From: Alphaproteobacteria bacterium
Lineage (GTDB): Bacteria; Pseudomonadota; Alphaproteobacteria; GCA-2746255
DNA: 64,000 nt
Assembly: GCA_965249135.1 (NCBI GenBank)
Contig: OZ252220.1
Span: 320,001-384,000 of the forward strand
Direction: 5' to 3'
Positions 45,001-51,000 of the stretch are shown in pieces. Numbering within the stretch: position 1 is the stretch's first letter; the number at the start of each line of letters is the position of its first letter. The position numbers were made by a program.

Positions 45001-48000
45001 CGATCCGGGTGAGCGCCTCCTGGGCGTAGCTCCCGGCCGGCACGGTGCCCGGCTCGCCGATGGCGATGATCCGCCCGCCCAGGTTTTTCGTGATGTGAAG
45101 GCCAAGCGGAATGCCAAGGGTGAGTGAGCTGTCAACGCGCGCGATGAAGACGAGTCCACTGCCCTGAATTTCCGCCGTCTCGCCGGTGGCCTCGATGCTG
45201 CGGGCGGCGAGCGCTTCTTTCCAATTCGGTTGGTCCGTAATCAGCAGGTCGACGGGCGCCCCTTCCGTGATGCGCTGTTCGAGTTCGGTCACGGAAGCAA
45301 ACGTGATCAACACGGCCCCCAGCCCCTTCGCCGCGAAACGGTCGGAGACGACCTGCAACACGTTCGTAAGGCTGGGCGGCGCGTAAACGGTGACCGGCGT
45401 CGTCACCTTCGCGTGCGCTTGGGCAAAGGCCAGCGTCACCGCGATTCCGGCAAGCAACGCGCCCCGGCCCCTCCGCCACCTAGTCTTTGTAAAGTTCTTC
45501 CGGATCGACAAGGACGTCTTCCACGGTTTCGAGTTTCCCCCCGCGCACCGCGCGGAAGAAGCAATGGCGCCGGCCGGTGTGGCAGGCGACCCCTTTCTGC
45601 TCGACGGTCACCAGCACCGCATCGCCGTCGCAATCGATGCGAAAATCGACGAGCGCCTGGGTTTGCTTGGAATTTTCTCCCTTTCGCCAGAGACGGCTTC
45701 GGGACCGGGACCAGTAATGGACTTGGCCGGTTTGAAGCGTCTTTTCGATCGCCTCGCGGTTCATCCACGCCGTCATCAGGACCTCGCCCGTGCCGTCCTG
45801 CTGGGCGATCGCCGGCACCAGGCCGTCAGAGTCGAAGGCGATGGCATCAAAGACTTCCGGCAAGGCGTCGGCCGCAGACTTCGGCATCGAAGCTCTCCTC
45901 GTTTTAAGCGTTGGATGGGCGGCAGCGAAGCCTTTTCAGGGATGCGCTAAGCAAGGCGGCCTGTCAACTGTCCTTGCCCCCTTCGAGGCAGCGGACGAGA
46001 TGGACGGCGTTCCTTCGCATCATGTCTCCGTAAAGGTCCGGTCCCGGCTCGAGATCGCTGCCCAATGGGTCGAGGGTTTCGATGCGAAGTTCGGCGCCTT
46101 CCCCAAGCCGCTCGACGATGGGCGAGGCGAATTGGGGCTCGCGGAAGAGGCAGCGGATCTTTTGTTCGTGGATCCTTTTCCGAAGCAGGACGAGCCGCCT
46201 GGCCCCAGGTTTTCGTTCCGGATCGATGGCGATCGCGTCCATGGGACCTAAGCCGTAGCGCCGCGCGAGATAGGCGTAGGAATCGTGAAAGACGAGGAAG
46301 GGGCGGCCGGCAAGCGGGCGAAGCGCCGCGCCGAGTTCCTCGTCAAGCGCCCGCAGCCGCCGGATCGCCGCCTCCCGGTTTCGCTGGTAGGCGCGCGCGT
46401 TGGCAGGATCCGCCGCGATGAGGGTTTCGGCCACCACCTCCGTGATGCGCACCGCGTTTTCTGGATCCAGCCAGAAATGAGGGTCGGTAGCGGCCGCTTT
46501 CCCATGGGAATCGTGGGTTTCGCGGGGCTTCAACCGGGTCATCCCCGGCGCGTGGAGAAGGGCTACGGCCCTTGCGTCGGACCCCAGATTGGTGAGCGCC
46601 CGCGCGACGAAGAACTCGAGCTCCGGCCCGGTCCAGAAGACGCGGGTCGCCTTGGCGAGTTTGCGGGCGGCCGACGGGCGAAGGGCGGTGCGGTGGGGGG
46701 AGGCGCCCCCTTCGATCAGCAGCTCCGGCCTTCCGACCCCCTCCATCACCGCCGCCGTGAGCGAGTGGAGTGGGGGCAGGCTCACGACGACCCGGGGCGG
46801 CTCGCCGGCCGAGGCCTGGCCGAGAAGAGCGATCGCCCAGGGAAGGGTCTGAAGAATTCGACGCAAATACATGAAAAATCTAAGTTTTTAAAAATGTTCC
46901 TGTCGTAGTAAGCATTTGTTTACTTAATGGAACCAATAAGCTATGTTATATTATTATTCATTCTTTCTTATTATAATACAATGATTTTTATTCTGGATAG
47001 AGGAAAGGAATAGGATGAGCCTGGGAGCCCAAATTGCCGTCCCGCCACCCGGCGAGGGGCACGACCACCGCCGCTGCATGGCCGACGCCCTGAAGGCGGC
47101 GGCCGAGCTTTGCCACCATCGGGGGGTTCGCTTCACGCCCCTACGGCGCCGGGTGCTTGAGCTGATCTGGGGGAGCCACGTACCGTTTGGCGCCTATGCG
47201 ATCCTCGATGCCCTCCAGGAGGGGGGCAAGCGGGTGCGGCCGCCGACCGTCTACCGCGCCCTTAATTTTCTGCAAAAACAGGGGCTTGTTCACCGAATCG
47301 AGTCCCAGAACGCCTATATCGGCTGCGTCGATCCGGCCCGGCCCCATCGCGGCCAGCATCTGATCTGCCGAAACTGCGGCAAGGTCACCGAACTCAACGA
47401 CCGGGCGGTCGAGATGACCCTGCTGTCCGGCGCCAAAGGCAAGGATTTCGCGCTCGATCAGGCAACCGTCGAGGGCGAGGGTCTGTGCCGCGATTGCCGC
47501 CCGGGCGAGGTGCCCCCCCCCTCGGCCCAGACTGCCCGAACGGCCCCGCTTATCAAGGCGCCCGAGCCGGCCGTCCCGGACCGGGGTCAGAACCTCGAAG
47601 GGACCGCGTCGCTGATGGCGGCCAGTGGGCTTTCCCTGGCCAGAGACGGGCTTCTCGTCCTCGATCGGGTGAATCTCACCGTCCATGCGGGCGAGATCGT
47701 CACCATCATCGGTCCGAATGGATCAGGCAAGACGACGCTGGTCCGCACACTCCTTGGCCTGATCGAGCCGGACGCGGGCGAGATCTGGAAGGCGGACGGG
47801 CTTCGCGTCGGCTACGTGCCCCAGGCCTTCGAGGTCGACCCGAACCTGCCGCTCACCGTGGACAGGTTCCTGCGTCTCGGCGGCGGCAAGGCGGCCGAAG
47901 CCCGCGCCGTCCTTGAGTTGGTGGGGGCGGGCCCGCTTCCCGATCACCCGATCCAGCAGCTTTCCGGGGGCGAGATTCGCCGCGTTCTGCTTGCCCGGGC

Positions 48001-51000
48001 CCTGCTCAGAAAGCCGAACCTGCTCGTCCTGGACGAGCCCGTCCAAGGCGTCGATATCGTCGGCCAGGCGGAACTCTATAAGCTGATCAATGCGGTACGC
48101 CGTGAGGCGGGCTGTGCGGTGCTGATGATTTCCCACGATCTTCGGCTCGTGATGGCGGCGACGGACGAGGTCGTCTGCCTCAACCACCATGTCTGCTGCG
48201 CCGGCCATCCGGAGGCGGTGAGCCGGCACCCGGAATATCTGGCGCTGTTCGGCGAGGAGGCCGACGAGAAAAGCTTTGCCGTCTACACCCACCGCCACGA
48301 CCACCGTCACGACGAGGCGGGGAACGTCGTGCCCTTCGCTGGGTCCGGGGAGGCTTGAGAACATGGACGATCTCCTGATTCGCGCGGTTCTGGCCGGCAT
48401 CGGGGTGGCGGTGGTGGCCGGGCCGCTCGGTGCCTTCGTCGTCTGGCGGCGGATGGCCTATTTCGGGGATACGATGGCCCATTCCGCCTTTCTGGGGATC
48501 GCCCTTGGCTTTCTCCTTCATTTCGACGTGTCGATCGGCATCTTCGCCGTCGCCGTCGCCATCGCGCTTTCCTTAGGCCTCGCCCAGCGCCAGAAGACCC
48601 TCGCCACCGACACCCTGCTCGGCCTCTTCGCCCATGGCGCGCTCGCCTTCGGGCTGGTCGGTCTTGCCTTCCTCGAAGGGGTGCGGATCGATCTGATGGG
48701 CTATCTGTTCGGCGACATCCTCGTCGTCGGACGGGGCGACCTCTTCGGAATTTACGGGGGCGGGGCGGTTGCCCTGATCGGTCTGGTTGCCATCTGGCGG
48801 CAGCTTCTTTCGATGACCATTCATGAGGAACTCGCCCAGGTGGAAGGCGTGCCGGTCCAGCGTTTGCGGATTCTTTTCATGGTACTGATCGCGCTGGTCA
48901 TCGTCGTCGCGCTCAAGATCGTCGGCATTCTGCTGATCACCTCGCTTCTCATCATTCCGGCGGCAACCGCGCGGCGTTTCGCCCGCAACCCCGAACCGAT
49001 GGCGATTCTCGCCGCCTTCCTCGGCGCCCTTGCCGTCGTCGGCGGAATTTCAGGTTCGTTCACATGGGATACGCCGTCCGGCCCCTCCATCGCCGCCGCC
49101 GCCTTCCTGATCTTCGTGGCCAGCCTGCTTGTGCCGGCCGGTGCCTTGGGTGTTCTGGTGGGGCGAGAGGAGAAACCGACCCTCCATGCGCCACCCCGTC
49201 TTCCGCAAAACCGATAACGCGCTCGCCCTCAGGACGATCTTTTCCGTCTTCTATGAGTATTAGGAAAAAGCGCGTTCAGGCGGCAGCCTTCATCCGCTTG
49301 AAGCCTTCGTCGAGATCCTGGAGAAGATCGTCCGCATCCTCGAGGCCGGCGTGGATGCGGATGCTGGGTCCCCCCGTCCACTTCGTCGCCGTGCGTAAGT
49401 CTTCCGCGTGGAAGGGAAGGATTAGGCTCTCATAGCCGCCCCAACTGTACCCCATGGCGAAAAGCTTCATGTGATCCAGCATGGCGACGACCGCCTGCTT
49501 CGGGGTGGCCTTCAACACGAAAGAGAAAAGCCCTGGTGCGCCGGTGAAGTCGCGTTTCCAGATGGCGTGGCCCGCATCTTCCGGCAGCGCCGGGTAGAGG
49601 ATGCGTTCCACCTCATCTCGCCCCTTCAGCCACGCGCAAAGCTTCATCGCGGTGGCACAGTGCCGCTCCAACCGAACGCTGAGCGTACGCAGGCCCCTTA
49701 ACGCCAGGAAGCATTCCTCCGGGCCTGAGCACGCGCCGATGTTTGCCGTCATCTTTCGGATCGTCACGTAGTGCTGTTTTTGGGTCGTGATCACGCCGAG
49801 CATGGCGTCCGCATGGCCGACGATGTATTTCGTCGCCGCTTGGATCGAAACGTCGACGCCGTGCGCAAACGGCTTGAAGTAAAGCGGCGTCGCCCAGCTG
49901 TTATCCAGGATGACGACGGCCCCTTTTTCATGGGCCGCCTTGGCGATTGCCGGGATGTCCTGCACTTCGAAGGTAAGCGAGCCTGGTGATTCGACGAAGA
50001 CGACCTTCGTGTTTGGTTTCAAAAGCGCCGCGATGCCGTCCCCGATCACTGGGTCGTAATAGGTCGTCTCGACGCCGTAGCGTTTCAGAACCTGATCGCA
50101 GAAGCGCCGCGTCGGCCCATAAACGGAATCCGCGACCAGGACGTGATCGCCGGACTTGAGGAACGCAAATAGCGAAGCGGCGACGGCGGCAAGACCCGAC
50201 GCCATCGCGATTCCCCGATCCCCGCCTTCGAGTTCGGCGACCGCTTCTTCCAGTGCGAAGGTCGTCGGTGTGCCGTGCCGGCCATAGAAGACGCCGTCGA
50301 ACGGGTTCTTGTCGAAGGATTCGAGGACCTCGACCGATGGAAACGTGACGGTGGAGGCGCGATAGACCGGCGGGTTGACGATCCCGAAATTCTTCTCCGG
50401 ATCGCGGCCGGCGTTGACGATGCGGGTATCTTCCTTCATCCGACTCGCTTGTAAAGAGTGCGTGATGACCGGTCAAGGCGGCCACTTTCGGCCTTGGAGA
50501 ATGCCGCCCTTTCCCGGATAATGGGGGCCTCGCAAACCGGAGCGAAGCGCCCGCCCGTGCCCCATTCCCACGCCATCGTCCTTCTTTTCTTCATCGTGCT
50601 TGGCGTCATCGCAGGGGTTGCCTCGGGATGGATTTGGGGCGAGGGGATGCTCGCCATCGCCTGGATCGGCGAGCTTTTCCTGAACGCGCTCAAGATGCTG
50701 ATCATCCCGCTGATCATAGCTGCCGTCATCAGTGGCGTCGCCGCGCTCGGCGACATCCGGAAATTGGGCCGACTCGGCGGCATCACCGTGCTTTATTTCG
50801 TCGGCACGACGGGCCTTGCGGTGGCCATCGGTCTTCTGATGGTCAACCTCATCCAGCCGGGCGTGGGGTTGGAGTTCGAAGCCAAGATGGTTCCTGAATC
50901 GATTGCGCTTAAAACGGACATCGGCTTTTCGGACATTCTGCTTTCTCTCGTCTCGCCGAATCTGATTGCGGCGGCAGCCGAAACCCAGCTGCTTCCCCTC

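Follow-up and report, generated by a model that had tools for sequence, protein, structure and literature searches.

The closest described systems are the Np20/Zur system of Pseudomonas aeruginosa, in which Zur represses the zur-znuC-znuB operon that encodes it and znuA is transcribed in the opposite direction (excerpts of PMC3781045), and the zur/znuA system of Paracoccus denitrificans (excerpts of PMC5387054). On the side of the transporter, the C-terminal zinc-sensing motif of Escherichia coli ZnuC has been shown to lock the pump, with zinc ligands that include C193, H197, C199, C200, H230, H232, H234 and His246 (PDB 9OKO-9OKR; excerpts of PMC12236471). The znu locus considered here resembles those of P. 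aeruginosa and Paracoccus in its gene order, in the divergent znuA and in the Zur box within the shared spacer, and, by prediction, in the co-transcription of Zur with znuC and the repression of its own operon. It differs from these systems, in which Zur is free-standing, in that no stop codon separates the two products, which form one chain of 447 residues, and in that no free Zur is found in the genome.

A Zur-ZnuC open reading frame in the znu locus

The window (the whole stretch of DNA analysed, 64,000 nucleotides) contains an open frame at 47015-48358 on the forward strand, encoding 447 amino acids plus a stop codon and beginning with an ATG preceded by the purine-rich GGAAAGGAATAGG. Its product is one polypeptide made of a complete Zur domain, a disordered linker and a complete ZnuC ATPase, with Pfam matches to FUR at residues 36-152 (2.3e-14) and to ABC_tran at residues 216-343 (1.5e-29). 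The frame is flanked by znuA, the gene of the periplasmic zinc-binding protein, which is divergent from it (45964-46872, reverse strand; Pfam ZnuA, 1.5e-60), and by the downstream znuB permease gene (48363-49217, forward strand; Pfam ABC-3, 5.5e-72), the ATG of which, at 48363, lies 4 nt past the stop codon of zur-znuC. The NCBIfam scores of both neighbours are below the cut-offs of the models (189 versus 268 bits for ZnuA; 274.9 versus 284 bits for ZnuB). The preliminary description had proposed both the presence of FUR and ABC_tran on one frame and a zur-znuC/znuB operon facing znuA, and the matches, coordinates and strands agree with it.

The Zur domain (residues 13-164; 47051-47506, forward strand) comprises a winged helix and a dimerization domain, and by sequence it has the two-domain fold of Xanthomonas Zur (7DH7, 4e-27) and E. 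coli Zur (4MTD, 3.6e-25). In the AF2 model these residues fold with helices and strands in the Fur order, with block-mean pLDDT values mostly between 72 and 95, and 53-67 at the domain ends. All eight zinc-ligand positions of E. coli Zur are kept in the alignment. C118, C121, C158 and C161 correspond to the structural Cys4 site (C103, C106, C143 and C146), which bears out the earlier claim of a complete Fur-family domain with two CxxC pairs. Among 15 fused sequences C118 is invariant and each of the other three is kept in at least 90%, the exceptions being one row with a C-to-G change and one artefact-like row. H93, C104, H111 and E126 align with H77, C88, H96 and E111, which form the regulatory zinc site; H93, C104 and E126 are invariant among the fused sequences aligned. 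The recognition helix PPTVYRAL is also kept, with Y61 and R81 matching Y45 and R65, the DNA-contact residues of E. coli Zur. Unlike E. coli Zur, the domain has Q68 in place of R52, a residue of the dimer-dimer salt bridge, and, unlike both the E. coli and Xanthomonas proteins, its C-terminus runs on into the linker and the ATPase.

Among NCBIfam models, that of Zur matches the domain best (residues 25-162, E 2e-32, 112-115 bits), the Fur and PerR models giving 36 bits at most; the score is below the cut-off of 167 bits, which is a narrow one, since just one of 14 control genomes passes it. In five pairs the dN/dS values of the Zur domain (0.07-0.21) are as low as those of the ATPase domain (0.13-0.28). 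By taking into account its residues, model and constraint, the Zur domain looks functional and is predicted to bind DNA. That it might be a degenerate Fur appendage, a concern raised previously, is contradicted by the retained ligands and recognition helix and by the dN/dS values.

The ZnuC part consists of a nucleotide-binding domain (residues 199-385; 47609-48169, forward strand), predicted with pLDDT above 90, and of a zinc-sensing domain at the C-terminus (residues 386-447; 48170-48355, forward strand). Walker A (GPNGSGKT, 233-240), the Q-loop, LSGGE (316-320), Walker B (LLVLDE, 336-341) with its E341, and H374 of the H-loop are invariant among the fused sequences. The NCBIfam ZnuC equivalog NF007090 is matched over residues 206-439, barely above its cut-off (307.3 versus 306 bits), and E. 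coli ZnuC (9okq) matches the whole ZnuC part (2.9e-81). The resemblance to Pseudomonas ZnuC noted before extends to identities of 52.8-64.6% with ZnuC at 80 genome loci, many of them from Pseudomonas. In the zinc-sensing domain C388, H392, C394 and C395 form the CxxxHxCC motif and align with C193, H197, C199 and C200 of E. coli ZnuC, and H426, H428 and H430 of the His-rich tail with H230, H232 and H234; seven of the eight E. coli zinc ligands are thus matched, and the eighth, His246, has no aligned His by count of the alignment. With the overall match, the CxxxHxCC motif and the three tail His conserved, the post-translational zinc lock of the E. coli protein is expected to operate here also. 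The dN/dS values of this domain are 0.03-0.09. E. coli ZnuC has no N-terminal extension, whereas here about 200 residues of Zur plus linker precede the ATPase and two different zinc sensors are found on one chain.

Between the two parts lies a Pro/Ala/Ser-rich linker (residues 165-198; 47507-47608, forward strand), which is predicted to be disordered (pLDDT below 50 at residues 165-191) and is hypervariable in length and sequence among the fused homologues (about 20 to 70 residues). Its dN/dS values of 0.25-0.84 and many indels, with strain variants that carry a net 9-nt deletion inside it, indicate an almost neutral evolution. In the AF2 model the two domains are each folded with confidence, whereas the overall pTM is 0.61, which suggests no confident inter-domain packing.

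Spacer, Zur box and zinc regulon

The 142-bp spacer between znuA and zur-znuC (46873-47014), a divergent promoter/operator region, is AT-rich as previously stated (25.4% G+C versus 60.3% for the window). Its predicted Zur box, ATGTTATATTATTAT at 46943-46957 (ATAATAATATAACAT on the reverse strand), is an imperfect palindrome that matches 12 of the 15 positions of the Zur-box consensus TGTTATAWTATAACA and is the sole site within three mismatches of it in the 2.118-Mb genome. The Zur pattern of Paracoccus, GTAAYRWWATAACAT (Table 7, in the excerpts of PMC5387054), likewise has no other site in the genome that differs from it at one position or none; matches with two mismatches occur in other intergenic regions, for example between clpP and clpX. 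Since these scans used the consensus TGTTATAWTATAACA and that of another organism, they could overlook Zur targets elsewhere that are weak or divergent. The palindromes put forward in the preliminary description are present (TATTATAATA at 46969-46978 and TTTTTAAAAA at 46885-46894), but they are not the best operator candidates, ATGTTATATTATTAT being the Zur-box match. A second, weaker Zur site is possible at 46965-46981: three overlapping 15-mers at 46964-46983 are within four mismatches of TGTTATAWTATAACA, GTATTATAATAAGAA at 46965-46979 is within three mismatches of the Paracoccus pattern, and 46946-46957 and 46970-46981 form an inverted repeat with 83% complementarity. A promoter scan of the spacer gave no strict sigma-70 consensus match. 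Zur boxes are found upstream of all nine fused genes examined, namely in the six spacers of the genus and in three genomes of a second family (f69), where G243 and G369 have ATGTTATATTATAACAT immediately next to the start codon and G073 has TGTTATAATATAACA.

A genome-wide search yielded three Fur-family proteins; besides the fusion these are an Irr, with 207 bits to IrrA, and the Fur-like g01592. The earlier statement that no free-standing Zur exists is therefore upheld, and the reservation that g01592 might act as Zur is not, by its scores of 94.6 bits to Fur versus 26.8 bits to Zur. Against the Zur model the fused domain scores 113-136 bits in the nine fused genomes, where the runner-up reaches 21-30 bits, so that on these scores none of them has another Zur; in the present genome the data support the fusion polypeptide as both the only Zur and the only ZnuC. 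ABC-3 permeases are represented by one strong match (znuB) and one of 22 bits. The genome has a single L31 gene, and its best match to COG0523, at 39.5 bits, is not a strong one. From such sequence matches, the Zur regulon of these genomes is apparently the znu locus alone.

Occurrence and origin of the fusion

The fusion is in frame in all six genomes (species) of the genus and is also found in three genomes of family f69; a single-frame, full-length match was obtained in seven of 401 sampled genomes of the class (four in family f1, three in f69). The junction is crossed in frame by contigs from four runs of four other studies, in which indels occur nowhere but in the linker and total 9 nt. 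The nine genomes and these contigs contradict an artefact of assembly or annotation, in agreement with the preliminary description. Among the best 120 matches listed, 14 other protein clusters carry PF01475 and PF00005 on one protein; that number stands as first given, but the cluster with an additional PF00950 (P0073) is one of the 14 and not a further one. P0073, P0015 and P0121 look fused and contain frame-shift-like junk, so that these three are probably artefacts. The fusion is old and genuine, and it is carried by a few small-genome, marine-type alphaproteobacteria.

Among the 101 loci compared (L004-L104), zur stands directly upstream of znuC at 78, the two genes being in different reading frames, and 16 have no adjacent zur; in one (G048) zur ends at a stop codon and znuC begins after it in the same frame. 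The fusion is probably a simple joining of two neighbouring genes of the common zur-znuC-znuB operon. The literature searched holds no description of a Zur-ZnuC fusion, in line with its earlier presentation as new.

A proposed tethered autorepressor and its alternatives

With a probability of about 0.6, the protein is a bifunctional Zur-ZnuC derived from the common zur-znuC-znuB operon, in which an ordinary zinc autorepressor is passively tethered to the pump, a reading to which the variable linker and ZnuC's own zinc-sensing motif lead. Loss of the stop codon between the abutting zur and znuC of the widespread operon would have generated the fusion. The C-terminal part would be the normal ATPase of a ZnuB2C2 zinc importer, with a zinc-sensing tail that could lock the pump at high cytoplasmic zinc, and the N-terminal part a normal zinc-sensing Fur-family repressor. 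We infer that the chain stays uncleaved and that the two Zur domains, on flexible linkers of 35-70 residues from one ZnuC dimer, pair into a Fur-type dimer; when loaded with zinc and still attached to the pump, this dimer would bind the Zur box in the znuA/zur-znuC spacer and repress both promoters, releasing the operator when zinc is scarce. The linker would be a passive tether and no allosteric connector. The fusion may have been tolerated and kept because in these small genomes Zur apparently has no target other than the znu locus, so that the repressor would have to reach one locus only, which encodes membrane and secreted proteins.

The alternative that survives best, unlikely as it is, makes tethering irrelevant to regulation: Zur-ZnuC dimers without ZnuB would diffuse freely and repress as a usual Zur does, and ATPase activity would belong to the fraction bound to ZnuB alone. 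ABC ATPase subunits are soluble domains, the Zur domain and its operator are canonical, and no sequence feature forces stoichiometric assembly; on the other hand, 4 nt separate zur-znuC from znuB within a single operon, for which roughly equal synthesis of fusion and ZnuB is expected. Somewhat less probable is a functionally silent fusion, the chain being split into ordinary Zur and ZnuC by proteolysis of the linker or by internal initiation. The disordered, hypervariable linker favours this reading, but no protease site is known. In this genome and G002 the place of the ancestral ZnuC start, where free ZnuC proteins begin, has an in-frame ATG (M201) with a weak purine-rich stretch at a 12-nt spacing, so that some free ZnuC may be made here; yet a start-type codon is present at that position in six of the nine fused genes (as ATG in two) and a suitably placed SD-like motif in three, and what internal initiation would yield is ZnuC on its own, with no free Zur. 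The shorter ZnuC-only products in public annotations (P0009, P0027 and P0279) look like annotation choices, since the frames are open.

It is improbable, slightly more so than a split chain, that the Zur domain directly touches the ATPase domain and thereby brakes the pump in response to zinc, or has its DNA binding set by the state of transport. Regulatory domains are known on the ATPases MalK, MetN and ModC of ABC importers, and two zinc-sensing modules have been retained on one ATPase in two families. Against this stand the conserved ZnuC tail, which already does that job in E. coli, the low pTM-based confidence in any packing between the domains, and the linker, which by its disorder, length variation and near-neutral evolution speaks against a coupling of defined mechanical or allosteric kind. 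That the Zur domain shuts off the pump directly, as suggested in the preliminary description, is thus unsupported; its other suggestion, of a repressor working while tethered, would be the better one, with an AT-rich operator and its Zur box adjoining the gene. Very improbable, and already contradicted by the available data in spite of the junk-bearing entries P0121, P0015 and P0073, is an artefact or a remnant that no longer binds DNA, by taking into account the preserved frame, ligands and helix, the conserved Zur boxes and the lack of another Zur.

The proposed passively tethered autorepressor has partial precedents. MalK-MalT, Mlc-PtsG and PutA exemplify transporter-linked control of transcription regulators by non-covalent, state-dependent association, and CadC, ToxR and TcpP are membrane-anchored one-component regulators. 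As in the former group, a transcription factor is here physically tied to a transport or membrane protein of its own pathway, but through a covalent link that, as far as present evidence goes, does not depend on state. The likeness to the latter group lies in the proposed capture of a chromosomal site by a DNA-binding domain held on a flexible linker at the membrane's inner face, which CadC achieves by two-dimensional diffusion and capture in 4-5 min (excerpts of PMC7888679), so that it is feasible for a membrane-bound regulator to find its DNA. CadC, ToxR and TcpP have their own transmembrane helix and respond to periplasmic signals; here an ABC transporter would serve as anchor for a Fur-family repressor that responds to cytoplasmic zinc.

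There is also a small chance, comparable to that of a split chain, that repression depends on the state of the pump through the covalent link, making of the protein a 'trigger transporter'. Zinc-locked ZnuC tails would then hold the Zur domains close, so that they dimerize on the operator, and once the tails unfold and the ATPase domains part and cycle, the Zur pair would be pulled apart or kept from the DNA. Since its products are membrane and secreted proteins, the znu locus would be kept at the membrane beside its own tethered repressor, and transport activity, zinc level and transcription of one locus would be coupled in space.

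The fused gene and its occurrence

The zur-znuC ORF (47015..48358, + strand, 447 aa) begins with an ATG preceded by a purine-rich ribosome-binding stretch, znuB begins 4 nt past its end, and znuA is divergent, across a 142-bp spacer (46873..47014). Pfam places FUR at residues 36-152 and ABC_tran at residues 216-343 of this single frame, confirming the fusion and the operon context set out in the preliminary description. The NCBIfam ZnuC equivalog matches residues 206-439 with 307.3 bits (cut-off 306), and the NCBIfam Zur model matches residues 25-162 (E 2e-32), under that model's narrow cut-off. 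The 2.118-Mb single-contig genome contains three Fur-family genes only, as had been counted before: the fusion, one Irr (207 bits) and one Fur-like protein.

In all five other species of the genus, zur and znuC are also found in a single stop-free frame, with a longer linker in G003. The junction is spanned by contigs of four public sequencing runs, each from a different study; these represent strain variants, are consistent with the database protein cluster P0002, and carry as their only indels five small deletions inside the linker (47520-47545), which sum to 9 nt so that the reading frame is preserved. Thus, the initial opinion that the fusion is not an assembly artefact holds, the frame being open throughout the genus, in the second family that contains the fused gene (f69) and in the contigs of four studies. 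A loss of 2 nt at the fusion stop codon (window position 48357) is seen in one low-depth contig of run X7 (depth 3.6), close to where the alignment of this contig stops; should it be real, it would alter the end of ZnuC or the znuB junction in that strain.

When 401 genomes of the class were searched with a fused homologue, a full-length single-ORF match was obtained in seven, namely four of the family of the source genus (source genome included) and three of f69, across two genera; in the remaining 40 genomes of this sample with a match at E <= 1e-90 only the ZnuC part was matched. Both domains were present on one protein in only two of the best 150 matches from a library of 1.84 billion representatives, and junk of a frame-shift-like kind is present in one of the two, cluster P0121, and likewise in P0015 and P0073, so that the architecture must be considered rare. 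P0121 (458 aa) and P0073 (461 aa) extend over Zur and ZnuC as far as the first part of ZnuB; they were not accepted as triple fusions on account of their out-of-frame-looking stretches, likely assembly indel errors. Some database fusions are, therefore, artefacts, and the proteins of the two families are clean. A contig search with the fusion protein returned 80 loci, none fused and none from the genus itself, mostly zur/znuC gene pairs of Pseudomonas, Marinomonas and alphaproteobacteria.

An in-frame ATG (M201), preceded at a distance of 12 nt by a weak purine-rich stretch, is found at the usual start of free ZnuC. Some public annotations report a ZnuC-only product (247-335 aa) where the ORF, Zur domain included, stays open over 452-462 aa (clusters P0009, P0027 and P0279): P0027 corresponds to the C-terminal 335 residues of an open 462-aa ORF of G369, a genome of f69, and P0009 begins at the M201 position. 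These short calls are taken for annotation choices rather than for a sign of split genes. As a consequence of such calls the genomes seem to lack Zur, their sole Zur may go unannotated, and it would escape an automated reconstruction of the regulon.

Properties of the Zur and ZnuC parts

Alignment with E. coli Zur (4MTD) demonstrated the conservation of 4/4 structural cysteines (C118, C121, C158, C161) and of 4/4 regulatory-site residues (H93, C104, H111, E126); the Tyr and the Arg that contact DNA are retained inside an unchanged PPTVYRAL helix. The structural, regulatory and DNA-contacting roles are those reportedly assigned to these residues with the 4MTD structure. Most of them are invariant across 15 fused sequences with identity down to 47%, and the dN/dS values calculated for five pairs of genus members are 0.07-0.21 for the Zur domain versus 0.13-0.28 for the ATPase domain. 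Residues 13-164 were folded confidently by AlphaFold2, and the Zur model has a single good match, the fused domain, in 9/9 fused genomes (113-136 bits, the next match reaching only 21-30 bits). Taken together, the conserved residues, the low dN/dS, the confident fold and the lack of another Zur indicate that the Zur domain is neither degenerate nor redundant. Two concerns of the preliminary description thus lose ground: that of a degenerate Fur appendage, given the intact residues and helix and a dN/dS as low as that of the ATPase, and that of the Fur-like paralogue (g01592) acting as Zur, given its scores of 94.6 bits to Fur and 26.8 bits to Zur and the low next-best Zur scores in all fused genomes.

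Ahead of the winged helix, an N-terminal HDHxxC (residues 15-21, window 47057-47077) is common to the fused and to many free proteobacterial Zur proteins (N-termini from loci L011-L104) and may be an additional metal site.

In the ZnuC part, which matches E. coli ZnuC (9OKQ) at 2.9e-81, the ATPase motifs are complete and invariant across the fused sequences aligned. E. coli ZnuC has been described to contain a C-terminal zinc-sensing motif, CxxxHxCC plus histidines, with a zinc-bound state that locks the transporter (PMC12236471). Seven of the eight zinc ligands named there align with identical residues in the fusion, and the corresponding C-terminal segment exhibits the lowest dN/dS (0.03-0.09), so that the pump already carries a zinc brake of its own.

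The operator and the extent of the regulon

The spacer between znuA and zur-znuC has a G+C content of 25.4% versus 60.3% across the window, and both palindromes named in it at the outset are present. A Zur box, ATGTTATATTATTAT, is predicted at 46943-46957 from its match to consensus patterns, being the only site of the genome with <=3 mismatches from TGTTATAWTATAACA, which we take to be the Zur-box consensus. It is also the only one with <=1 mismatch from GTAAYRWWATAACAT, a pattern built from the five Paracoccus sites for which binding was demonstrated experimentally (PMC5387054, Table 7); at 3 mismatches this pattern yielded 54 matches versus 71 with the reversed control. A weaker, putative second Zur site may be present at 46965-46981, and a strict scan of 46800-47100 for sigma-70 promoters and terminators returned 0 sites. 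A comparable box is found in the same spacer of every genus member (e.g. TGTTATAGCATAACA in G005), and in f69 perfect palindromes precede the fused gene, namely ATGTTATATTATAACAT in G243 and G369, and TGTTATAATATAACA in G073.

No convincing further Zur box emerged from the genome with these patterns, which are the consensus of other organisms. A Zur-box-like match between clpP and clpX in G000 was discarded as an apparent chance AT-rich match, and a 2-mismatch match in the congener G001 (L108, C1:168179-168193), between the gene of a MucR/Ros-like zinc-finger regulator and rpiB, as probably another, counts being no higher than those of reversed-pattern controls in either case. Of the usual Zur-regulon genes, ABC-3 permease and L31 are each encoded by one gene only, and COG0523 has no strong match in the genome. 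The Zur regulon appears to consist of the znu locus alone, as far as motif patterns derived from other organisms apply.

Directly downstream of znuA lies hisI (45480..45887, - strand), the genome's only copy. Its product, phosphoribosyl-AMP cyclohydrolase, is a zinc enzyme. The order hisI-(znuA)-zur-znuC-znuB-metC-like recurs in several alphaproteobacterial lineages with fused and unfused genes (loci L017, L025, L027, L029, L044, L053, L104, L117 and L118). In G243 and G369 hisI itself is divergent from the Zur-box spacer and, thus, might be zinc-regulated there. Past hisI (43968..45511, - strand) a molybdate/tungstate-type solute-binding protein (SBP_bac_11, 3e-36) and a DUF6134 protein (2e-33) are encoded.

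Origin, mechanism and meaning of the fusion

In a survey of 101 loci (L004-L104), zur is found directly upstream of znuC in a different reading frame in 78, znuC has no neighbouring zur in 16, and the two are fused in the six that correspond to the genus genomes. In the one left, of G048, zur, a stop codon and the znuC start follow each other in the same frame with no gap; this locus, a single 424-aa open frame in the search table, was rejected as a fusion because of the stop codon. In P. aeruginosa a zur-znuC-znuB operon diverges from znuA and is under repression by the Zur that it encodes (PMC3781045). With such a common layout the fusion is one small mutation away, and its most likely origin is a trivial loss of a stop codon, with no new mechanism.

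An initial ZnuC tree implied at least four independent fusions, a count that was abandoned as confounded by mis-called and artefact rows: the 'unfused' P0016, P0027 and P0009 are truncated calls of fused ORFs, and the 'fused' P0121 and P0073 are frame-shift artefacts. With the tree relabelled, and leaving out P0121, P0073 and P0015 and the long-branch P0123, P0124, P0129, P0131-P0133, P0136 and P0137, one clade of all clean fused proteins was not rejected by the AU test (p 0.716), a result compatible with a single origin, several origins or lateral transfer. The hisI/metC flanking synteny, considered as a sign that the loci of the two families share an ancestor, was dismissed as uninformative, being also found around unfused zur-znuC of other Alphaproteobacteria.

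The best-supported interpretation is that of a passive covalent tether joining an ordinary zinc autorepressor to the ATPase of the pump under its control. Two Zur domains would be suspended from the ZnuC dimer and would pair in the manner of Fur proteins, and the zinc-loaded pair would sit on the box between znuA and zur-znuC. The membrane-anchored regulator CadC is able to bind DNA (PMC7888679), and by analogy DNA binding by the fusion from the membrane would be feasible in principle. It is less likely that a soluble pool of unassembled fusion protein is responsible for repression. The same applies to cleavage of the chain or internal initiation, for which M201 would be suited by its position: among nine fused genes this position is occupied by a start-type codon of any kind in six, by ATG in just two, and only three of the genes show an SD-like motif plausibly spaced from it. 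A true allosteric coupling of the Zur domain to the pump is also less likely in the light of the linker (residues 165-198), which is Pro/Ala/Ser-rich and predicted to be disordered (pLDDT < 50 at 165-191), ranges in length between about 20 and about 70 residues in the fused homologues, and shows frequent indels and dN/dS values of 0.25-0.84; such features characterise a spacer rather than a transmission element. Of the coupling originally proposed, the joining of Zur and ZnuC in one chain stands, and direct control of the pump through Zur does not agree with a spacer-like linker.

No description of a fused Zur-ZnuC protein was found in the literature as judged by titles and abstracts, with subscription journals thinly covered; in PMC3781045 the term 'zur-znuC' designates the operon, and in PMC2706843 reportedly so as well. 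The architecture is clean, conserved and so far undescribed. Neighbouring genes of an operon commonly become fused when they abut, and a passive tether rather than a new mechanism is what the evidence favours. The protein would be the first described Fur-family metalloregulator built into the transporter under its own control, and a natural test of whether a repressor can function while attached to a membrane complex, within a very small closed zinc circuit that comprises a single regulator, a single operator and a single pump, each chain bearing two zinc sensors.
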